From positions 1,489 through 65,488 of the forward strand of contig JAZQVI010000028.1 of assembly GCA_045631745.1 (NCBI GenBank): a stretch of 64,000 nucleotides of DNA. Reading direction: 5' to 3'. How positions within the stretch are numbered: the stretch's first letter is position 1; each line of letters opens with the position of its first letter. The DNA is from Eubacteriales bacterium (GTDB taxonomy: Bacteria; Bacillota; Clostridia; Oscillospirales; CAG-272). This document shows positions 9,261 through 61,702 of this stretch, in pieces. The notes beneath the pieces were generated by a model. The model saw nothing but the letters and a program-made list of their open reading frames with translations. It was not told where the DNA came from and searched no databases. A program made the position numbers and the translations under genes.

Positions 9261-9273
9261 ATTCACAAGCGCA

Positions 9274-9480
9274 TTATTTGCTCTTGCTTGCAAGAAATTC
9301 GTTGATCTGCTTGATCAGCGCGTCAGCATCGGTTCCGTGAACGGCACAAGCGTCCTCAACCGACTCCCCTCTGGATGCAGGGCATCCCAGGCAATGCATT
9401 CCGATTGCAAAGAAGAATTGCGCGGTCTCGGGATCAAAATCAAGAATGTCTCCGATAATGGATTGCTTCGTAATCTGCAT
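9274..9480 (-). CDS. DUF1858 / hybrid-cluster-protein-associated redox disulfide domain protein
   Basis: 68 aa with MQITKQSIIGDIL..DPETAQFF...GMHCLGCPAS..ES.EDAC.VHG.D.., typical of this small family. Confidence 0.75.
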   Translation of the reverse strand: MQITKQSIIGDILDFDPETAQFFFAIGMHCLGCPASRGESVEDACAVHGTDADALIKQINEFLASKSK

Positions 9481-9696: not shown

Positions 9697-10734
9697 ATGA
9701 TGGCTCGTGATTTTGACGATATTCTCGGCAACGAACGCTTACGTGAGCGTTTGGGGCGGGACATACGCGCCGACAAACTCTCTCACTCCTATATCCTGGA
9801 GGGAGCACCCGGTTTTGGAAAGCATCTGATGGCACTGGAGATCGCCGCCGCATTGGCGTGTGAGCATCGGGAATCGAGCGAGCACTCCATTCCCTGCCAT
9901 TCCTGTCCCTCTTGCAGAAAGATCCTGTCGGGCAACTCCCCCGATGTGATATATATCAATCGCGGAGAGTACGCCACCCTCGGTGTGGATGCAATCCGAG
10001 CCATGCACGCCGACGTGTACGTTGCGCCAAACGACTGCGAAAAGAAGGTTTACGTCATCGAGGAGGCGCATCTGATGACCACGCAAGCGCAAAACGCCTT
10101 GCTTCTGATCCTGGAGGAGCCTCCCGCCTACGTACAGTTTCTCCTGCTTTGCGACCGTGCAGAGGCACTCCTTGAAACAATTCGAAGCCGCGCACCGGTC
10201 CTCCGTCTGCAGCCCATTGATCGGCATGTACTCGACGAGCACCTCTCTCGGACGCTGACCGAGGCCAAAATGCTCAAAAGCCAGTCTCCCGACGAATTTG
10301 AGGAGCTTCTCATCGCAGCAGGTGGCAGTGTCGGAGTTGCAAAGAACCTGCTCGATGCCAATCGGCGAAAGCCCATCCTCGAGCGCCGCGCCGCAGCACG
10401 GGAGTTTCTGTCGCTTTGCGGAAACGGTCGCCAAAGCCTTGCCGCTCTGTCCTATCTCAGCGGGCTCGGCACCAAGCGAGACATGATCGTCAGACAGCTG
10501 GAGGAAAATATCATCTGTCTGCGAGATCTTTTGGTCTGCAAACAGACCGAGGAGGCTCCTCTTTGCTTTTTTGCAAAACGGGAGGAGGCGTGCGAGCTTT
10601 CCTACCGATTTTCCACGCCCGAGCTCTTTCGCATCTGCGAGGGACTGGAGAAGGCGATCAACGCTCTGCAGGCAAACGCCAACGTCCGTCTGACGCTGAC
10701 GCAACTTGCAATCGACATTGGAATGATGTCTTAA
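9697..10734 (+). CDS. holB: DNA polymerase III subunit delta'
   Basis: HSYILEGAPGFGK (P-loop-like), zinc module C..C.SCRKI, KVYVIEEAHLMT..AQNALL..LEEPP and ETIRSR. The start was moved to the ATG at 9697, behind SD ggaagga; the track ORF begins at 9631, inside the promoter. Confidence 0.88.
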   Translation: MMARDFDDILGNERLRERLGRDIRADKLSHSYILEGAPGFGKHLMALEIAAALACEHRESSEHSIPCHSCPSCRKILSGNSPDVIYINRGEYATLGVDAIRAMHADVYVAPNDCEKKVYVIEEAHLMTTQAQNALLLILEEPPAYVQFLLLCDRAEALLETIRSRAPVLRLQPIDRHVLDEHLSRTLTEAKMLKSQSPDEFEELLIAAGGSVGVAKNLLDANRRKPILERRAAAREFLSLCGNGRQSLAALSYLSGLGTKRDMIVRQLEENIICLRDLLVCKQTEEAPLCFFAKREEACELSYRFSTPELFRICEGLEKAINALQANANVRLTLTQLAIDIGMMS

Positions 10735-53147: not shown

Positions 53148-54443
53148 ATGGAATCCATTTGGAAGGACGACGCGTCGCGTCCGCAATTTGAGGCGCTTGA
53201 CGGAGATAAAAGCACCGACGTGCTGATTATTGGGGGCGGAATCGCAGGAATCCTTTGTGCCTACAGGCTCAAAAATGCGGGGGTGGATTGTATGCTCGCG
53301 GAGGCAGACAGGATATGCGACGGCATCACGAAAAACACCACGGCAAAGATCACCCTCTCGCACGGTCTGATCTATGACAAGCTGATCCGCCGCTTTGGTG
53401 AGGAGCGTGCGAGGCTCTATCTGCAGGTGCAAGAGAGGGCAATCACGGAATACGCCCGCCTCTCAAAAAAGATTGACTGCGACTTTGAGCAAAAGGATTC
53501 CTACGTCTACTCCTTAGACGATCCGAGAAGGATTCAGAAGGAGGTCTCGGCCATCAACCGACTGGGTGGTGAGGCGACCTTCTCGACGGCGCCCGCGCTG
53601 CCCTTCCCTGTCGCGGGCGCAGTTTGCGTCAAGGATCAGGCACAGTTCCACCCTCTGAAATTTTTATATACGATCGCCCGTGATCTCCCCATTTTTGAGG
53701 ACACCAAGGTAGTAGAGCTGATGCCGTATCAGGCAAAAACCAATCACGGCGTGATTTCCTTCAAAAAGCTGATCGTTGCCACGCATTTTCCCATTCTCAA
53801 CAAGCACGGGCTGTATCCCTTGAAGCTCTACCAGCACCGCTCCTACGTTATAACCCTTGAGGGAGCGCAAAATCCACACGGCATGTACGTGGACGAGCGC
53901 GACACAGGACTTTCCTTTCGCACGTATGGCGATCTTTTGCTCCTGGGCGGCGGCTCTCACCGCACGGGAAAGAGGGGGGGAGGCTGGCAAGAGCTGCAGG
54001 ATTTTTCAGAGCATCACTACAAAAGCGCCAAGATCGTACGCCGCTTTGCAACGCAGGATTGCATGACGCTGGACGGCGTGCCTTACGTCGGACAGTATGC
54101 AAGAAACACCCCCGACGTATTTGTGGCAACAGGCTTCAATAAATGGGGCATGACCAACGCCATGGTCGCCGCCGAGATCCTCTGCGACCTCGTCCAAGGG
54201 AACAGGAATTCCGCCGCCGAGGTCTTCTCCCCTGCACGCTCCATGCTCCGCCCCCAGCTTGCCGTCAACACCTGCGAGTCCCTCATCGGACTTCTCACCC
54301 CCACCGTCCCCCGATGCCCTCACCTCGGCTGCGCGCTCAAATACAACCGCGCCGAGCATTCCTGGGATTGCCCCTGCCACGGCTCGCGCTTTACCGAGAA
54401 CGGAGAACGGATCGACAATCCTGCCACCGATGATAAAAAATAA
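53148..54443 (+). CDS. FAD-dependent oxidoreductase fused to a C-terminal Rieske [2Fe-2S] domain (YhfW-like)
   Basis: DVLIIGGGIAG dinucleotide loop. Rieske CPHLGC..(17)..CPCHGSRF. Confidence 0.86.
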   Translation: MESIWKDDASRPQFEALDGDKSTDVLIIGGGIAGILCAYRLKNAGVDCMLAEADRICDGITKNTTAKITLSHGLIYDKLIRRFGEERARLYLQVQERAITEYARLSKKIDCDFEQKDSYVYSLDDPRRIQKEVSAINRLGGEATFSTAPALPFPVAGAVCVKDQAQFHPLKFLYTIARDLPIFEDTKVVELMPYQAKTNHGVISFKKLIVATHFPILNKHGLYPLKLYQHRSYVITLEGAQNPHGMYVDERDTGLSFRTYGDLLLLGGGSHRTGKRGGGWQELQDFSEHHYKSAKIVRRFATQDCMTLDGVPYVGQYARNTPDVFVATGFNKWGMTNAMVAAEILCDLVQGNRNSAAEVFSPARSMLRPQLAVNTCESLIGLLTPTVPRCPHLGCALKYNRAEHSWDCPCHGSRFTENGERIDNPATDDKK

Positions 54444-54445
54444 GA

Positions 54446-54478
54446 GATCCCCCTTTCGGCGATGCCGAAAGGGGGATC
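54446..54478. terminator. bidirectional intrinsic terminator
   Basis: 15-bp hairpin gatccccctttcggc-gat-gccgaaagggggatc between convergent genes. The T-run is stronger on the minus strand. Confidence 0.7.
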
Positions 54479-54484
54479 CTATCT

Positions 54485-55375
54485 TTAATGATGGTGGTGA
54501 TGGTGTCCCGAGGAATGCGACGCTTCCACGTGACAATGCTCCTCGTGGCAGTGCTCGCCCTCGCGCTCCAGCTCCAGCGTCGCGTGTCCAATGCCGTGCT
54601 CGCGCAGCTCCTCGCGGATCTTGTGCTTGATCCCGTGCGCCTCCTCGTTAGTCACAATATGCATCGTAGCATAATTGCTCTGCCCGTCCAGGCTCCACAC
54701 ATGAACGTGATGCACCCCAAGCACACCCGGGATCTCACAAATGTGCTCCTCCAGCTCGTGAATCTCGATCCCGTGAGGTGTTTTTTCCAGGAAAAGCTCC
54801 AGCACCTCCTTCATGTTTTTCAGAGCATTAACGAGAATAAACGCAGCCACGCCCACCGACATGATGGGGTCGATGATAGCAAAATCAGTGAATTTCATGA
54901 CGATCGCGCCGACAAGCACCACGATCCAGCCAAGCACGTCCTCCAGCATATGGAGATTGACCGCCTTTTGATTGAGCGATCCCCCTTCACGCGTAAAGAG
55001 GGCGGCGGCGAGGTTGACACAGACGCCTATGACCGCAAACACAATCATACCGTTATAGTTGATCTCGGTAGGACTGACGATACGTGCGATGGCATTGTAG
55101 ATAACCATAACCGAGCCAAAAAGCAGAATCAGGGTGGTGATGACGCTCCCGATAACCGAATATCTCGCATAACCGTAGGTGTAATTCTCATCGGGCTGCT
55201 TCTTGCTCTTCTTTTCCAGGAAGAAGGCGACGCCAATACTTGCCGCATCCCCAATGTCATGAATTGCGTCCGACACGATCGCGACGCTCCCCGTAAACAC
55301 ACCCCCGATAAATTCAAAAACAGAAAACGATAAGTTGAGAAGAAAGGCGATCAGAATGTTCTTTTCCGTCTTCAT
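54485..55375 (-). CDS. cation diffusion facilitator (CzcD/ZitB-type) with His-rich C-terminal tail
   Basis: SVAIVSDAIHDIGD (TM2 HDxxD site), HMLEDVLGW (TM5), tail HCHEEHCHVEASHSSGHHHHHH. The start was set to the ATG at 55375, behind SD gggaggg. Confidence 0.88.
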   Translation of the reverse strand: MKTEKNILIAFLLNLSFSVFEFIGGVFTGSVAIVSDAIHDIGDAASIGVAFFLEKKSKKQPDENYTYGYARYSVIGSVITTLILLFGSVMVIYNAIARIVSPTEINYNGMIVFAVIGVCVNLAAALFTREGGSLNQKAVNLHMLEDVLGWIVVLVGAIVMKFTDFAIIDPIMSVGVAAFILVNALKNMKEVLELFLEKTPHGIEIHELEEHICEIPGVLGVHHVHVWSLDGQSNYATMHIVTNEEAHGIKHKIREELREHGIGHATLELEREGEHCHEEHCHVEASHSSGHHHHHH

Positions 55376-55467
55376 TATACCCTCCCGCGCGCTTGGATTG
55401 ATGGAATTATTGTAGCATAAGCAATCGGAATTGTCAAGACGAAGGAAAACAAATAAAGCCGAAAAGA

Positions 55468-55496
55468 TTGAAAAGTGAATCAAAATATGTTATAAT
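55468..55496 (+). promoter_or_regulatory. sigma-A promoter for the ECF sigma operon
   Basis: TTGAAA (55468-55473), 17 nt spacer, TATAAT (55491-55496). Confidence 0.6.
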
Positions 55497-55621
55497 ACAT
55501 CATTGGAAAGAAGAATTTTTACACGCCCGCCAAAAAAATCCGTTCGGTCTGTAAGATATGGAGTCTGCTTTGCGACTATATAAGTGAAAGGCCTTTGACA
55601 ACCGTGTAAGGAGGTGTCTGC

Positions 55622-56173
55622 ATGGAAGATGAGAGAATCGTTGCACTGTATTGGGAACGCAACGAAAGCGCAATTCGAGAAACCGAGAAAAAATACGGAA
55701 AATACTGCTATGCCATCGCATACAATATTCTTCATTCGCACGAGGATTCGGATGAATGTGTAAACGATACCTGGAACGGCACGTGGAACGCAATTCCTCC
55801 CGAAAAGCCAACCGTGCTGAAGTGCTTTCTCGCTCGCATAACGCGAAACATCGCCATCGACCGATATCGGTATGACGGTGCACAAAAGCGAAGCGCAGAG
55901 GTAGAAAGCGCGATGGATGAATATTGGGAGTGTATTCCAAACAAAGAGGCCTCAATCGAGGACGAATACATCCTAAAGCAGGCAATCAACGGATTTCTTG
56001 AAAGTCTGGACAAACGCACCCGCGTTATCTTTATGCGCAGGTATTGGTATTCGATGAGCGTTAAGGATATCGCCGACAGAATGCGTCTTTCGGAGGCTCA
56101 TGTCAGTGTCATCCTACACAGAACCAGAAGCAAATTTAAGGATTATCTTACGAAGGAGGGGATATTTGTATGA
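55622..56173 (+). CDS. ECF-type sigma-70 family RNA polymerase sigma factor
   Basis: Region 2 (..Y..IAYNIL.S.EDSDECVNDTW) and region 4 HTH (MSVKDIADRMRLSEAHVSVILHRTRSKFKDYL). SD aaggagg. Confidence 0.85.
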   Translation: MEDERIVALYWERNESAIRETEKKYGKYCYAIAYNILHSHEDSDECVNDTWNGTWNAIPPEKPTVLKCFLARITRNIAIDRYRYDGAQKRSAEVESAMDEYWECIPNKEASIEDEYILKQAINGFLESLDKRTRVIFMRRYWYSMSVKDIADRMRLSEAHVSVILHRTRSKFKDYLTKEGIFV

Positions 56174-58092
56174 AGAAAAAGAATTGGTATCGCGGCCTTG
56201 GCCTTGCCGATGACAAATACATTTCCGAGGCGCATCCCGATCATGAAATTACGCCAAAATGGAACAAGGTGGTTATTTCTCTTGTTGCCGCCTGCGCGTG
56301 CTTTGCGCTTGTTCTATGTAACCTGTGGCTCTTTATTCCCTTTGACACCACCCTGCCCGACGTATCGCAATATGCCGACAGTGCGTACTATGGACTGATC
56401 CAAAAATTGAACGTCCTCACGTTTGATCCGCCAAGATACAAGAACAACGCGGAAAAGCTGTGGGCAAATCTAAAAAAATTTGGCCCAACTAAATCCGATA
56501 ACGCCGACATCGCTGAGAACGGCGCTCTGTTGGGTGGAGCCAACGGAGCGGACAATTACCGGGAAATCACCGACAATCAGGTAGCGGGGATTATAGAAGC
56601 CGACCGCATCAAGCGCAGCGACACGCATATTTATTATCTCGACAACGAGGTGCTTCGCATCTACGCTATTGAACAGGAAAACACCGCGGAGATCGGCAGC
56701 TATACCCTCTACGGCGGCAGCAAGAACCATTACCTGGATCAATGGGAATTCTACCTTTCAAGCGACTGCAAAACCGTAACGGTTATAACACAGTATTATG
56801 AAAATGCCAAAGGCAATTCGAGGCGCTACGTGAATGTGATTTCGCTTGACGTCAGCGATCCTGCCAACATTGTAAAGAAGGATGAATTCAACGTCACGGG
56901 CAGTTATACGTCCTCCCGCCTGACGAACGGAAGCATCCTGCTCCTGACCGAGTTCGCGGTTTACAAGCATACGCTTGACTTTGACGACGAGAGCACCTTC
57001 CTTCCCCAGATCGACGAGGGAAACGGCGCGTACAGCATTCCCGCCGACGGCATCGTCTCTCCCGACACGCTCAGCTCCTCACGGTATACCGTTGTCATGA
57101 AGCTCGATGCGAACACCCTCGATCTCAAGGGCACCGCCGCGTATCTCTCTTATTCGGAGGACGTATACGTTTCTGAGAATCATGTGTTCCTGACACACGT
57201 TTTCGCAGAGAAAACGAAAAATAAAGATGGAACGATCACAAGAAATTCCATGACCGAGATTTCCTGCCTGACCTACGGCGGCGATCGCTTTGAGCGAAAC
57301 GGAAATGTGACGGTCAGAGGCTACGTCAAGGATCAGTGGAGCATGGACGAGTACGAAGGCATTCTTCGCGTTTTCACGACCACCAACGCCACAACGATTC
57401 GGGAGCGGTATGACGGAAACGGATCCGTATCCTCCACCATCCTTCAAACCGCTACAGGCAACTCCAATGCGAGCCTGTATTGCATCGATCTCGCAAGCTT
57501 TGAGATCGTTGCCTCGGTGATGGATTTTGCACCTCCGGGCGAGGAAATTCAGTCGGTGAGATTCGATCGGGAAACCGCATACGTTTGCACCTCGATTGAG
57601 CTTTCCGATCCCGTATTCTTCTTTGATCTGTCCGATCTTAACAACATCACCTACAAGGACACCGGCACAATCGAGGGCTTCTCAACCTCTCTGATAAACC
57701 TTGGAAACGGATATCTCCTTGGCATCGGCAGAGGGAACGGCTGGAGCGACTTTAAGATTGAGGTATATGAGGAGACCGAGAACAGCGTCCGTTCGGTATG
57801 CTCGTATGAGCTCAAAAACACGCGTTATTCTACCGTATATAAGTCCTATTATGTGGACCGTGAAAATCAACTCGTCGGACTTGGCATCATTGATAACAAT
57901 TCCTACAAAACCGACAAGAATTCGGATGAAGCAAACCGATATATCCTTCTGCATTTTGACGGCTACGAGCTTGTAGAGCTTGTGAACGTTCCGCTTGCAG
58001 GAGACCCCGTCAACCAGCGCGGTGTTTATATCGACGGCTATCTGTATCTGTTTGGTCACAACGAATTTAAGGTAGAAAAGATATTTGACTGA
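56170..58092 (+). CDS. membrane-anchored beta-propeller domain protein (Beta_propel family), in the anti-sigma position
   Basis: 4-nt overlap with the sigma gene. Short cytoplasmic N-terminus plus one TM helix (VVISLVAACACFALVLCNLWLF). Extracytoplasmic part has QWSMDEYEGILRVFTTT, VRFDRETAYVCTSIELSDPVFFFDLSDLNNI and GFSTSLINLGNGYLLGIG, which match the Beta_propel pattern. Confidence 0.78.
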   Translation: MKKKNWYRGLGLADDKYISEAHPDHEITPKWNKVVISLVAACACFALVLCNLWLFIPFDTTLPDVSQYADSAYYGLIQKLNVLTFDPPRYKNNAEKLWANLKKFGPTKSDNADIAENGALLGGANGADNYREITDNQVAGIIEADRIKRSDTHIYYLDNEVLRIYAIEQENTAEIGSYTLYGGSKNHYLDQWEFYLSSDCKTVTVITQYYENAKGNSRRYVNVISLDVSDPANIVKKDEFNVTGSYTSSRLTNGSILLLTEFAVYKHTLDFDDESTFLPQIDEGNGAYSIPADGIVSPDTLSSSRYTVVMKLDANTLDLKGTAAYLSYSEDVYVSENHVFLTHVFAEKTKNKDGTITRNSMTEISCLTYGGDRFERNGNVTVRGYVKDQWSMDEYEGILRVFTTTNATTIRERYDGNGSVSSTILQTATGNSNASLYCIDLASFEIVASVMDFAPPGEEIQSVRFDRETAYVCTSIELSDPVFFFDLSDLNNITYKDTGTIEGFSTSLINLGNGYLLGIGRGNGWSDFKIEVYEETENSVRSVCSYELKNTRYSTVYKSYYVDRENQLVGLGIIDNNSYKTDKNSDEANRYILLHFDGYELVELVNVPLAGDPVNQRGVYIDGYLYLFGHNEFKVEKIFD

Positions 58093-58102
58093 TGGAGAAC
58101 AC

Positions 58103-58133
58103 AAAAAGGAGAGCAGATGCTCTCCTTTTTGTG
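58103..58133 (+). terminator. intrinsic terminator after the beta-propeller gene
   Basis: Hairpin ggagagc-agat-gctctcc followed by tttttgtgtt. Confidence 0.7.
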
Positions 58134-58342
58134 TTGCTCCGATTTTGGGAGCAGATCTACACCGACGGCAAGCAAAGTCCTCGAAACATTTACGCCAAGC
58201 GAGAGGAATGCGAGGAAAAGCTCGTCGAAATGATCGAACGAGCGAAAGCAGAAATTGCGGAAGAGAAAGCAAAACAAAACGAGGGCACCGATTAAGGTGC
58301 CCTCAAATTTTGGTCTGCAGTAAACAAAGAAAACACGCTGAT

Positions 58343-59815
58343 TTATACTACACAAGGGATATCAATGCTGGAGAAGATAGCTCTTGCTTCAGGATATAAC
58401 GCCCACCGGAATGCAGGATGAACTTCCCAATCGTAACCAAACTCGGCATATTCAGTAGAAAGATAATTGTTGTCCTCAAAGTATTTTCGGTCAATATATC
58501 CGTCTCCCGAATCCTTTCTTGCTACTATGAAATTGATTTTATACATAAAAGCAAGCAATTCCTTAGCAGTTGCTGTATGACCATCAGCAAAAACAAAATC
58601 ACCACCCTGCATAATACCGGAGATTTTACTTAGAATTTGACTTTCTGTGTATTTATGGGAGCCAGTTAGTTTCTTTTGCTCGTGATTTGGCTTCATTCCA
58701 AGCAAAAGACGTCTAATAGATGGCAACTCATATCTATGCTCGTTGATGGTATCTTGTAATCTATTTTGTGAATACTGGGAAAAAACAGACTCCCAATCTG
58801 ATGTAGTTATTTTCTCTTCACGGTTACTACGCGCCTCTCGTGCCGCTTGTATACATAAATTAATTAAATCCCTGGGTCTCCTTCTTGTAAGTGACAAGAG
58901 AATATAGTGAATTGGTCGATTGTTCCACTTGCCATCTCCCATGAAGTGACTATCCATAATTGGATACAATAATTTTGCAATTTCAAATTGTGGTTTTTTT
59001 AGCAAATTCCTTTCTGAGACAGAGTATCCCAGATAACTTTGTATGCGCTTTGCTAAAAAAACCAACAACTCATGTTCAGTCCAGGATAGCCAAATTACAT
59101 TTCCCTCAATTTTGTCCGTTGATTCATCGGCAGTACGTACCAAGAAATAAACGTCACTACGCAAACTAATTCGGAATTGCAAACCAGAAGATTCATTCGA
59201 GAGATCGCGAACAGCATTTAAAAGCGCAGCAATTCTCTTGACGTTATTTGCTGTGCCCTCCCATGCTCTGTCTAAATCGTCAATGTATACAACCAATTTA
59301 CGATTGGCAAGATATTTTTTGCAAATAATTTGTCTTGTTTTTTCAATATCAACTTTATCGTTTATCCCTCTAATTATTGTTGTGATTTTATCTATTAATT
59401 TTACACCTTTTCCAAGAATCTCATTTGCGAGGCGAGAATCGGTGTCGATTTGAAACTCTCTCATCACTAATTCTGTGATGAGAGAATTAAGCCCATTTTT
59501 CCACTTTTCTATGAGATTTAGAGGGTTTTCATTCTCACTTACTTCACACAAATCTGAAATATCATTTGGTCGAATCCACAATGATAGTATATTTTGTTCT
59601 AAATTCTCTTCATACGACATTCTAAACAACGCGGATTTACCAACACCTTTATGAGCGACTAAAATTCTTAATGGTCGATCATTGTGGATTTGGTCATATA
59701 TGGCGCTTTTGAAAAAACTGCTTTTAAAGCGTCCAATTTCCTCGTCCTCTGCAGCAAGTTCTCCAAATAGTCCTGTAATTTGTTCTTCTGAAAAAGTTAT
59801 ACGATTCTGCACCAA
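58343..59815 (-). CDS. standalone P-loop NTPase (AAA+/ORC-like lid), on an AT-rich islet
   Basis: Walker A LVAHKGVGKSALF, Walker B KLVVYIDDLDRAW, lid-like RRRPRDLINLC, unknown ~150-aa C-terminal domain. TTG/GTG start behind gagagga. Much more AT-rich than its neighbours by eye. Confidence 0.8.
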   Translation of the reverse strand: MVQNRITFSEEQITGLFGELAAEDEEIGRFKSSFFKSAIYDQIHNDRPLRILVAHKGVGKSALFRMSYEENLEQNILSLWIRPNDISDLCEVSENENPLNLIEKWKNGLNSLITELVMREFQIDTDSRLANEILGKGVKLIDKITTIIRGINDKVDIEKTRQIICKKYLANRKLVVYIDDLDRAWEGTANNVKRIAALLNAVRDLSNESSGLQFRISLRSDVYFLVRTADESTDKIEGNVIWLSWTEHELLVFLAKRIQSYLGYSVSERNLLKKPQFEIAKLLYPIMDSHFMGDGKWNNRPIHYILLSLTRRRPRDLINLCIQAAREARSNREEKITTSDWESVFSQYSQNRLQDTINEHRYELPSIRRLLLGMKPNHEQKKLTGSHKYTESQILSKISGIMQGGDFVFADGHTATAKELLAFMYKINFIVARKDSGDGYIDRKYFEDNNYLSTEYAEFGYDWEVHPAFRWALYPEARAIFSSIDIPCVV

Positions 59816-59936
59816 TTATCATCCTCTCGTGTTTGTGCTTCTTAATACTTCATTTTCCGCAAATATATCTTCAAGTAAGAAGAATACATATTATCCAACC
59901 CCATTGCAATCGTGCGATAGGGTTGGAACATTGTTT

Positions 59937-60012
59937 TGGTCGGAATGACAGGATTTGAACCTGCGACATCCTGGTCCCAAACCAGGCGCGCTACCATCTG
60001 CGCTACATCCCG
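59937..60012 (-). tRNA. tRNA-Pro (anticodon UGG), CCA encoded
   Basis: Minus strand CGGGATG-TA-GCGC-AGATGGTA-GCGC-G-CCTGG-TTTGGGA-CCAGG-ATGTC-GCAGG-TTCAAAT-CCTGT-CATTCCG-A-CCA. Confidence 0.92.
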
Positions 60013-60110
60013 ATGATGAAATTATCTTTGGAGTTCAAATCCCGGAAGGATTCGGTCTCGCTGCGGCTCGGTTACCTCGCGGCTCTCGAGCTGCCTTTTG
60101 ATTCCTAACC

Positions 60111-60139
60111 ATTATAACAGATTCCCACCGAAAAGTCAA
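60111..60139 (-). promoter_or_regulatory. candidate sigma-A promoter upstream of tRNA-Pro (implies a ~90-nt 5' leader)
   Basis: Minus strand TTGACT (60139-60134), 17 nt spacer, TATAAT (60116-60111). I found no better promoter closer to the tRNA. Confidence 0.45.
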
Positions 60140-60277: not shown

Positions 60278-61702
60278 ATGGCAAACAGCATCAAGGACAT
60301 TCTCTCTCTGATCCGCGAGAAGGGAATCAAAATGGTTGACTTTAAGATGGTTGACATCAACGGCCAGTACCGTCATGTGACCATTCCTGCTGAAAATTTT
60401 TCTGAAGATACCATGAAGAGCGGAATCGGCTTTGACGCCTCCAACTATGGCTACGCTGTGGTGGAAAAAAGCGACATGGTCTTCATTCCCGATCCCGACA
60501 CGGCTGTGATCGATCCCTTCTGCGAGATCCCTACCCTCTCCATGACGGGTAACGCCATGATCATTGACACCCCCGAGAATCGTCCCCTGCCCCAGTATCC
60601 CAGAAACATTGTACTTGCCGCTGAGCAGTACATGAAGGATCTCGGAATCGCGGACACCATGCTCATTCTCCCTGAGTTCGAGTTCTATCTGTTCGACCAG
60701 GTTGGCTGGGAAGTCAGCGGCAAGAACATCGGTGTAAACGTGGATGCCAAGCAGTCCTACTGGAACAGTGCAACCGAGGGCCTTGGCGTGGTGGTGCCCA
60801 AGCAGAAGAACTACCACATCGCAAAGCCCTTTGACATCTCCTACGAGTGCCGCAGTGAAATGTGTCTGCACATGAAGGACGCCGGTATCGAGATCAACTA
60901 CCATCACCCCGAGGTTGCGGCTTCCGGCCAGTTTGAGATCGAGCCTCAGCTTGGTGTGATGTCCAAGATGGCTGATGCAACCATGATGATCAAATATATC
61001 ATCCACAACACCGCGCTCAAGTACGGCAAGACCGCAACCTTTATGCCCAAGCCCATTTACGGCGAGGCCGGAAGCGGTATGCACGTGCATATGCTTCTGC
61101 TCAAGGACGGCGAGCCTGTCTTCTCCGACGACAACGGCTACGCGCACCTGAGCGAGACCGCACACTACTTCATGGGCGGACTTCTGAAGCACATCGCATC
61201 TCTTTGCGCGCTGACCAACCCCAGCACCAACTCCTTCAAGCGTCTGGTGCCCGGATTTGAGGCTCCTGTAACCGTTGGTTACGCGACCTCCAATCGTAGT
61301 GCGGTCATTCGTATCCCCGCATACGCAAAGACCCCGAACAAGCGCCGCTTTGAGCTCCGCAATCCCGACGCGACCTGCAACCCCTATTTCTGCTATGCGG
61401 CAATTCTGATGGCAGGTCTGGACGGCGTGAAAAACAAAATCGATCCTCACGCGAACGGCTGGGGCCCCTACGATGTCAACCTCTATCACTTGAGTGACGA
61501 GGAGAAGGCAAAGCTTCACCACCTGCCCACCTCTCTGGACGAGGCGCTGAATGCACTCGAGGCAGACCACGACTATCTGACTGCCGGCGGCGTATTCCCC
61601 GAGGAGTTACTCAAGAACTTCATCGCAACCAAGCGCGCAGAGTGCAGCGAGCTCTCCAAGATTCCCCACCCCGCTGAATTCGATAAGTATTACAATCTTT
61701 AA
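60278..61702 (+). CDS. glnA: glutamine synthetase, type I
   Basis: 474 aa with V.F.MVDI.G..RHV, PEFEFYLF, NYHHPEVA.GQFEI, KP..GEAGSGMHVH and NSFKRLVPGFEAP motifs. SD aaaggag. Confidence 0.93.
   Translation: MANSIKDILSLIREKGIKMVDFKMVDINGQYRHVTIPAENFSEDTMKSGIGFDASNYGYAVVEKSDMVFIPDPDTAVIDPFCEIPTLSMTGNAMIIDTPENRPLPQYPRNIVLAAEQYMKDLGIADTMLILPEFEFYLFDQVGWEVSGKNIGVNVDAKQSYWNSATEGLGVVVPKQKNYHIAKPFDISYECRSEMCLHMKDAGIEINYHHPEVAASGQFEIEPQLGVMSKMADATMMIKYIIHNTALKYGKTATFMPKPIYGEAGSGMHVHMLLLKDGEPVFSDDNGYAHLSETAHYFMGGLLKHIASLCALTNPSTNSFKRLVPGFEAPVTVGYATSNRSAVIRIPAYAKTPNKRRFELRNPDATCNPYFCYAAILMAGLDGVKNKIDPHANGWGPYDVNLYHLSDEEKAKLHHLPTSLDEALNALEADHDYLTAGGVFPEELLKNFIATKRAECSELSKIPHPAEFDKYYNL

Follow-up and report, generated by a model that had tools for sequence, protein, structure and literature searches.

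The DNA analyzed here is a 64-kb window (64,000 nucleotides) of contig JAZQVI010000028.1 from an Eubacteriales bacterium, and the subject of this report is an AT-rich islet of about 1.8 kb that lies in it between a beta-propeller gene and a tRNA-Pro gene and holds a single gene, encoding a P-loop ATPase of the Sll1717 family. There is little doubt in our judgement that the islet was acquired horizontally and inserted at the tRNA-Pro 3' end and that the family and fold class assigned to its ATPase are right. The statement as a whole, that a remnant element at tRNA-Pro carries an ORC/Cdc6-like AAA+ ATPase acting as a single-gene defense, is one towards which we lean. The features of the locus, in window coordinates and including the open reading frame (ORF) of the ATPase and the contigs used for comparison (L192/L193, an islet-free relative; L081, which carries the closest ATPase homologue), are as follows.

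56170-58092, + strand: beta-propeller gene, 640 amino acids (Pfam Beta_propel, E 5e-67)
58108-58130, + strand: intrinsic terminator of the beta-propeller gene, host DNA (stem ggagagc/gctctcc and T-run, read from the sequence)
58129-58142, no strand: left copy of a 14-nucleotide imperfect direct repeat, TTGTGTTGCTCCGA, from comparison with islet-free L192
58143-58184, no strand: far end of the inserted DNA, homologous neither to L081 nor to the islet-free relative
58185-58295, + strand: putative gene remnant of an ancestral larger element, frame ...NIYAKREECEEKLVEMIERAKAEIAEEKAK-stop, within ORF 58092-58295 and kept in L081
58281-58304, no strand: G+C-rich hairpin with T-runs on both strands, a predicted bidirectional terminator ending the ATPase transcript
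58343-59815, - strand: Sll1717-family P-loop (AAA+, ORC/Cdc6-like) ATPase gene, 490 amino acids, full-length family match
59894-59927, - strand: stable hairpin just downstream of the tRNA, position conserved in L081
59931-59944, no strand: right copy of the 14-nucleotide direct repeat, TTGTTTTGGTCGGA, spanning the tRNA CCA end
59937-60012, - strand: tRNA-Pro (anticodon UGG), the insertion target (Rfam and tRNA search)
60111-60139, - strand: promoter-like site upstream of the tRNA, TTGACT-17-TATAAT with TG extension (consensus match only)
60278-61702, + strand: glnA, beyond tRNA-Pro

The base composition of the islet sets it apart from its surroundings. G+C content was 0.369 in the ATPase ORF and 0.38 in the stretch 58136-59936, compared with an average of 0.52 over the whole window (sd of 0.036 among windows of islet size), and no other segment of the 64 kb had so low a GC content or deviated so strongly in tetranucleotide composition. 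The ATPase ORF, on the minus strand, is the sole long ORF of the AT-rich segment; its start codon is TTG/GTG, with GAGAGGA just 5' of the start. An initial annotation made from the letters of the window had described an AT-rich one-gene islet and proposed k-mer atypicality as a check, and both the description and the check were borne out by these values. The CCA end of tRNA-Pro(UGG), at 59937, faces the ATPase gene, and the tRNA was the only match when Rfam was run on the locus. Exact database look-ups with the ATPase, beta-propeller and glnA proteins of the window returned no match.

To locate an empty site, both flanks of the islet were considered. In a scan of glnA, none of 80 Oscillospirales metagenome-assembled genome loci (87-93% amino acid identity) had tRNA-Pro or the beta-propeller gene adjoining glnA, so these loci were of no use for an empty-site test; the empty site was located via homologues of the beta-propeller gene. 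The closest database relative of the beta-propeller protein, P0272 (93% amino acid identity), lies on contigs L192/L193, which align with window positions 54435-58142 at 94.4% nucleotide identity and hold the same gene order (cation-efflux, sigma-factor, beta-propeller). In L192/L193 the beta-propeller terminator runs straight into the 3' end of tRNA-Pro, without an islet (L192 junction, ...CTCCCTTTTTGTATTGGTCGGAATATCAGGATTTGAAC...), and the terminator at 58108-58130 is the last sequence common to the window and this relative. The corresponding junctions in the window read ...CTCTCCTTTTTGTGTTGCTCCGATTTTGGGAGC... on the left and ...GGAACATTGTTTTGGTCGGAATGACAGGATTTGAAC... on the right. A more distant relative, L194 (79% amino acid identity), is also without the block after the beta-propeller gene. 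The comparison of the tRNA-Pro locus in related strains that the initial annotation had proposed thus gave absence of the islet in L192/L193.

The islet-free relative holds a single copy of the 14-nucleotide stretch, TTGTATTGGTCGGA, and the window holds two, which agree with each other at 11/14 bases. The left copy corresponds to a degenerate tRNA-Pro 3' end plus 6 nucleotides and, as judged from the alignment, acts as an attR-like border. Matches this good to the tRNA-end 14-mer were found at only four places in the window, and the neighborhood of a random position matched the 14-mer equally well in 12/20,000 trials (6e-4). These borders give an islet of ~1.8 kb, from 58143 to 59944 or, equivalently, from 58129 to 59930. 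Because the 14-nucleotide repeat is defined by the islet-free relative, the start of the islet had to be moved ~150 bp to the left of position 58296, where it had been placed initially. The pair of 8-nucleotide strings ttttggtc (58308 and 59934) that had been suggested as an att duplication is present in the DNA but is a chance match: a shared 8-mer arose in 11% of shuffles of the border regions, and the left copy lies inside islet DNA homologous to L081, where the string is not conserved.

The empty site in a close relative, the flanking repeats and the atypical composition together argue for insertion at the tRNA-Pro 3' end, as had been proposed from the tRNA linkage. The tRNA-Pro of L192/L193 breaks off in its anticodon loop, and the DNA that follows is unrelated; that contig therefore has its own rearrangement or a chimeric join. 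The junction between terminator and tRNA 3' end is unaffected by the break.

The closest homologue of the ATPase, P0001 (90% amino acid identity), is encoded on L081, in other genomic surroundings. In that contig, a block composed of tRNA-Pro(UGG), hairpin, ATPase gene, terminator and the fragment at 58185-58295 shows 83% nucleotide identity to window positions 58185-60013, with the same spacing to the tRNA. In the L081 counterpart of the hairpin at 59894-59927 both stem arms are changed and the pairing is preserved (by eye). Beyond the block, L081 carries a ParB-like ORF, an excisionase-like gene of the HTH_17/AlpA type and a DUF6809 gene. The window has lost everything past the fragment, and 42 nucleotides (58143-58184) separate the fragment from the left repeat. 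No integrase or excisionase was found in 58143-59930 by ORF list and Pfam. The reading favored here is that an integrative element entered the 3' end of tRNA-Pro(UGG) and then decayed, losing its integrase, and that segment 58143-59930 is what remains of it, with a single surviving cargo gene for a stand-alone ORC/Cdc6-like AAA+ ATPase of the Sll1717 family.

The fragment frame (...NIYAKREECEEKLVEMIERAKAEIAEEKAK-stop) has 66% amino acid identity to its L081 counterpart, where in-frame stops lie upstream and the ParB-like gene overlaps it in a different frame; no counterpart was present among the other fetched loci. It matched no family, and a search of protein databases returned only the fragment itself. 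An assignment as the N terminus of an integrase was considered and dropped, with no support from Pfam, NCBIfam or PHROG.

Several further observations were made on L081 and L192. Each of these two unrelated contigs (L081 9024-9061 and 9805-9880; L192 4190-4235) carries one half of a host-type tRNA-Pro(UGG); the halves are complementary, and the break falls in the anticodon loop in both. In L081 the 5' half is followed by foreign DNA with its own complete, different tRNA-Pro(UGG) and the ATPase gene; in L192/L193 the 3' half is followed by unrelated DNA. The motif TGACCACAG(A/T)TTTGACCA(C/T)TTAC occurs in both foreign segments, ~130-190 nucleotides from the tRNA break. This looks like an element family that inserts into the anticodon loop of tRNA-Pro and supplies a spare tRNA, with assembly chimeras at the tRNA as a lesser possibility. 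L081 also has a 28-nucleotide direct repeat (9264-9291 and 9794-9821) that brackets a 100-amino acid zinc-ribbon membrane ORF; the repeat consists of 16 nucleotides of upstream sequence and the first 12 nucleotides of the element's tRNA-Pro, an arrangement that points to another small insertion, this one at the tRNA's 5' end.

The 490-amino acid protein was assigned by profile search. NCBIfam NF047389 ("P-loop ATPase, Sll1717 family") matched with 233.3 bits (E 5.9e-69, cutoff 75 bits) and did so end to end, residues 17-473 covering model positions 1-454 of 454, and by this score the protein is a clear member of the family. The initial annotation had held that the protein could not be given a named assignment, a view that this match overturns. 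NCBI likewise names the homologue P0041 as Sll1717-family, and UniRef labels it 'KAP NTPase domain-containing'. The family is named after Synechocystis Sll1717, and no paper on it was found in a literature search. PHROG 22717, the function of which is not annotated, also matched the ATPase (1.5e-28). All Pfam matches, AAA_22 included, fell below threshold: ORC-CDC6-like (PF24389) scored 17.6 bits against a gathering score of 27 over residues 26-67 only, KAP_NTPase (PF07693) scored 14.6 against 20 bits over residues 150-192 only, nSTAND3 scored 12.7 against 27.2 bits, and AAA_16 scored 17.9 against 32.6 bits. The STAND label given earlier to the protein is not supported, since every STAND model stays below threshold and sensor repeats are lacking.

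The motifs of the protein were placed by alignment and are listed here by residue and window position.

59633-59653, - strand: Walker A, HKGVGKS, residues 55-61 (alignment and position check)
59270-59293, - strand: Walker B, VVYIDDLD, residues 175-182 (alignment and position check)
58853-58882, - strand: sensor-2/lid motif, RRPRDLINLC, residues 312-321, compare the ORC/Cdc6 lid arginine motif (alignment, structure)
58346-58810, - strand: C-terminal region, residues 336-490, a helical part, then a possible winged helix, then an invariant motif (alignment, model)

All three of the short motifs had been picked out in the initial annotation, and their key residues (Lys-60, Asp-179/Asp-180 and Arg-313/Arg-315) were invariant among 45 homologues. 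Against the L081 homologue, the ratio of nonsynonymous to synonymous substitution rates (dN/dS) was 0.07 at dS 0.75, from which the gene is judged to be under strong purifying selection. The end-to-end family match, the invariant catalytic residues and this low dN/dS argue for a functional rather than a decaying gene.

An AlphaFold2 model built with the 45 homologues reached a predicted local distance difference test score (pLDDT) of 79.9. The best Foldseek matches in the PDB were archaeal Cdc6/Orc1 (1fnn_A, E 1.5e-6; 1w5t and 2qby, E ~1e-5), with TM-scores of 0.34-0.47, and the next ranks were taken by eukaryotic ORC/Cdc6, FtsH, TnsC, MuB, RdrA (RADAR) and BrxC (BREX). The fold class of the modeled ATPase is thus ORC/Cdc6-like AAA+, in line with the ORC/Cdc6-like lid proposed at the outset. 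A helical insert of ~75 residues lies between Walker A and Walker B. Searches of a viral fold library gave generic AAA+ matches only, and a profile search of solved-structure sequences gave nothing. Only ~45 residues precede Walker A, and neither an N-terminal effector domain nor C-terminal TPR, LRR or WD40 repeats gave a Pfam match. No nuclease, TIR, protease, deaminase or pore-forming module was detected in the 490 amino acids, nor were any transmembrane segments (maximum 19-residue Kyte-Doolittle hydropathy 0.99), which sets the protein apart from canonical KAP NTPases. Near its end the C-terminal region carries the invariant motif FGYxWEVHPAFRWALYPE (residues 459-476). The order of helices and strands in this region fits a winged helix; modeled alone, the domain reached a pLDDT of 58.8, which is low confidence, and its best fold match (E 1.8) was not significant, with several winged-helix proteins among the weak matches.

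The distribution of the family was then examined. An exhaustive HMMER scan of 1.84 billion 50%-identity representatives returned 1,050 clusters at E <= 1e-3, with 137 at E <= 1e-30, which makes the family moderate in size. Members are known from Firmicutes, Proteobacteria and Cyanobacteria and from plasmids, prophages and viral contigs. The majority are stand-alone proteins of 480-500 amino acids. A 559-amino acid variant with an N-terminal cold-shock domain (P0053-P0120) is very common in gut Clostridia, and variants with an N-terminal Schlafen/AlbA_2 module have 674 (P0123) or 687 (P0145) amino acids; both kinds of fusion point to nucleic-acid recognition. A third variant, C-terminally extended to 669 amino acids, occurs on enterobacterial conjugative plasmids, adjoining a small serine recombinase. 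A plasmid search found 130 plasmids with a relative, 110 of them conjugative or mobilizable.

Two mobile copies may be described individually. On the Klebsiella IncF plasmid NZ_CP141858.1 (L102, 5401-7977), a 669-amino acid relative (family hidden Markov model (HMM), E 2.6e-42) lies directly 3' of a small serine recombinase, an arrangement also seen on ~110 other enterobacterial plasmids; the position of a gene beside a serine recombinase on a conjugative plasmid has been used as a marker of defense genes (PMC13552941). ORF1 of the Pseudomonas filamentous prophage PfAC09 (OR818369.1; L100, 5950-7452) matched the family HMM at E 4.5e-120. This gene, annotated 'DNA-binding protein', is at the accessory end of the prophage beside the excisionase, and it may serve the prophage for exclusion; PfAC09 received one incidental mention in a literature search.

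Neighborhoods of the homologues were variable and rich in defense genes. One homologue is directly downstream of Gabija GajA/GajB (L087), another directly downstream of a Lamassu operon with a CTD7 effector, MC3 and LmuB (L091), and a third immediately 5' of a complete type I-C CRISPR-Cas operon (L092). Others are carried by elements that encode relaxase, ParB and large serine recombinases (L082/L083, L088, L093) or adjoin IS66 (L094-L099). When the two nearest genes on each side were collected from the context loci and 88 metagenome or viral loci (~110 loci, 244 non-redundant proteins), at least ~25 of the 244 were defense-related (PADLOC E<1e-10), a rough count made without a matched background. 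Among the matches were type I/II methyltransferases, GajA/GajB (at a second locus), DruE, LmuB, Cas3, HmaA/HmaB, DISARM DrmA/DrmD, BrxHI/II, PD-T4-1, AriA, RT_UG17, RmrA/T and several PDC candidates. No conserved partner gene was found, 453 neighbors falling into 384 clusters; a 145-amino acid gene and a LytTR gene upstream were considered for this role and proved lineage-specific.

Of 48 loci with enough flanking sequence, 44 had an ATPase gene of higher A+T content than its surroundings, the mean GC difference being 0.10. A tRNA lies directly upstream of the homologue and in the same orientation in four loci of the closest clade (L081, L093, L106 and L132), the tRNAs being of three kinds (Pro-UGG, Pro-GGG and Leu-CAA), and between tRNA-linked loci the coding region alone is conserved. 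Variable neighbors, the AT shift, tRNA linkage and the lack of a partner together mark the gene as accessory, self-sufficient and horizontally mobile, of the type found in defense islands, and the Sll1717 family is mobile and associated with defense islands. In L093 (1983-2050, Leu-CAA) and L106 (7216-7285, Pro-GGG) the tRNA is followed by a nearly identical hairpin, AATCCGAAC...GGGTTCGGATT plus a T-run, which is a terminator type common to the hosts or else belongs to an element end that the two loci share.

From this context, the ATPase is somewhat more probably than otherwise a single-gene defense against phages or other invading DNA. The initial annotation had suggested a one-gene defense module, and this part of it gains from the homologues beside Gabija, Lamassu and CRISPR-Cas I-C, from those on mobile elements, and from a remote similarity to DS-41; no named defense system matched. 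The PADLOC check suggested there was run on the ATPase with PADLOC-DB 2.0, and the best matches, PDC-M28C (E 0.0013) and QatB (E 0.034), were confined to the Walker B region and are at noise level.

DS-41 ('AAA2', WP_033812887.1, 502 amino acids) is a single-gene ATPase predicted by DefensePredictor that protects E. coli against several BASEL phages (PMC13092281). The NCBIfam model DS41_1 (NF053860, an equivalog) matched the window protein in three partial stretches at E 4.5e-10 and 39.1 bits.

A number of points weigh against the interpretation given here. The DS41_1 score is far under the 370-bit equivalog cutoff, BLASTP against 399 of the 502 DS-41 residues gave a best E of 0.014 over 26 residues, and a 71-sequence family HMM scored E 1.5e-4 against the same 399 residues, with an hhalign probability of 7%. 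No experiment or named defense system backs defense for the Sll1717 family, PADLOC giving noise only, and the enrichment of defense genes among neighbors comes from a rough count that had no matched background. The absence of a visible effector domain makes any mechanism speculative, and the winged-helix call is based on secondary-structure order and non-significant fold matches. Only a single islet-free lineage was found, and its tRNA is broken in the anticodon loop, which leaves a small probability of deletion in the relative rather than insertion here. Finally, there is no good sigma-70 site between the tRNA and the ATPase start (59816-59936, minus strand). With no promoter found for the gene itself, a near-consensus extended -10 site upstream of the tRNA and a hairpin after tRNA-Pro that lacks a U-run, the ATPase gene may be expressed by read-through from the tRNA promoter.

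As for how such a defense would operate, we can offer only a tentative scheme, in which the specific mechanism is an ATP-gated, nucleic-acid-binding switch that blocks the invader. Like its structural neighbors ORC/Cdc6, MuB/TnsC and BrxC, the ATPase would act as an ATP-driven switch. The C-terminal winged-helix-like region would bind nucleic acid; relatives add an N-terminal cold-shock or Schlafen/AlbA_2 module. The ATPase would oligomerize on foreign DNA or replication intermediates, ATP binding and hydrolysis would gate this assembly, and the assembled protein would block replication or transcription of the invader. Since there is no nuclease, TIR, protease or membrane domain, killing, if any, would proceed via ATP consumption, steric blockade or the invariant C-terminal motif. 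A bolder extension, which we regard as improbable, is that the whole Sll1717 family is a widespread single-protein immune system, an AAA+ switch without an enzymatic effector that would work as a 'decoy initiator' or replication block on invader DNA or replication intermediates, with the cold-shock and Schlafen fusions as variants that add recognition or cleavage of single-stranded nucleic acid.

Of the explanations that compete with defense, the one that holds up best is that the ATPase serves a mobile element, as an ORC/Cdc6-, MuB/TnsC- or IstB-like loader or target selector for replication, transposition or integration, and was left stranded in the window. Its best folds are indeed replication initiators (Cdc6/Orc1) and transposition ATPases (TnsC, MuB), and homologues do occur within elements with relaxase, ParB and serine recombinases; the enterobacterial plasmid relatives adjoin a small serine recombinase, and one of them is annotated 'transposase'. 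A recombinase or transposase is, however, never a conserved neighbor, and many chromosomal homologues are flanked by Gabija, Lamassu or CRISPR without an adjacent mobility gene. The Pf phage encodes a separate replication initiator, and the copy of the ATPase gene there is at the accessory end. In the window the ATPase has outlived all mobility genes and is still under strong purifying selection. On balance, a role as element helper is unlikely.

Less probable again is a role in the cell's own regulation or stress response, in which the ATPase would sense nucleic acid and serve physiology rather than immunity, comparable to the redox phenotype reported for Synechocystis Sll1717. The family is named after a cyanobacterial chromosomal gene, Sll1717 of Synechocystis, which was reportedly linked to the plastoquinone redox state in a 2006 J Bacteriol paper, and cold-shock-domain fusions are common in relatives. 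Such a role is hard to square with a 94%-identical relative that lacks the gene at this site, with a patchy distribution that includes mobile elements, with the strong AT shift relative to hosts, and with neighborhoods that are variable and defense-rich. Least probable, indeed very unlikely, is a native islet lost in L192/L193 by deletion between the 14-nucleotide repeats or through an assembly artefact at the tRNA: the lone islet-free lineage and its truncated tRNA-Pro followed by unrelated DNA, which suggests a rearranged or chimeric contig, would fit such a loss, but the islet has a GC content of 0.38 against 0.52 and the largest k-mer deviation, the same block stands in a different genome context in L081, the distant relative L194 also lacks it after the beta-propeller gene, and a chimeric join inside the tRNA would still leave the junction between terminator and tRNA 3' end intact.

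If the defense reading of the ATPase is true, a family of more than 1,000 sequence clusters, now annotated 'P-loop ATPase, Sll1717 family' or 'hypothetical' and missed by PADLOC, would gain a function, and defense by a bare ORC/Cdc6-like ATPase without an obvious effector would raise a well-defined question of mechanism. The locus lends itself to testing, with one 1.5-kb gene, an islet-free relative, cold-shock and Schlafen fusions, and a Pf prophage copy. For the genome it is ordinary, being another small tRNA-linked accessory islet.

Comparison with known systems was made at four levels. DS-41 and the window protein are both one-gene P-loop ATPases of ~500 amino acids and share four collinear motifs, namely an N-terminal F..AE.E, GxGKSA, hhhhD(D/K)LD and PR(D/E)LIxLC. 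The N-terminal motif reads NPFEHYTAENE in DS-41 and LFGELAAEDE in the window protein, Walker A reads GAGKSA and GVGKSA, Walker B reads VLIDKLDE and VYIDDLDR, and the lid motif reads SPRELIKLC and RPRDLINLC, respectively. The central and C-terminal regions do not align. On these sequences the window protein belongs to a different system from DS-41, which is no more than a remote relative and offers a functional analogy.

With Orc1/Cdc6, MuB, TnsC, BrxC and RdrA, the protein shares an AAA+ core followed by a lid and a C-terminal domain, with an arginine-rich lid motif. It differs from Orc1/Cdc6 in its low sequence identity (10-13%), in TM-scores of 0.34-0.47, in sub-threshold Pfam scores and in the ~75-residue insert, and the window gene has no association with a replication origin or with BREX or RADAR partners.

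Single-gene KAP-type P-loop NTPases of gut Clostridia, which have a C-terminal region of unknown function, gave Walker B-dependent phage resistance in a 2026 study (PMC13552941). The likeness to this group (PifA of the F plasmid, EF_KAP and gut-metagenome KAP; PMC13552941) lies in a single-gene P-loop NTPase with a C-terminal region of unknown function, carried on mobile DNA of gut Firmicutes and often near serine recombinases. The window protein differs in having no transmembrane helices and in its score with the Pfam KAP_NTPase model (14.6 against a 20-bit cutoff).

Compared with tRNA-linked islands in general, the islet is without integrase or excisionase, is only 1.8 kb long, and has a repeat that is short and imperfect (11/14). 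It shares with them the location at a tRNA 3' end, a tRNA-derived flanking repeat, an atypical composition, a presence/absence polymorphism and cargo of the defense type. Viewed in this way, it is a credible instance of a kind already familiar, a real insertion with corrected borders that carries a member of a named family and a candidate one-gene defense.

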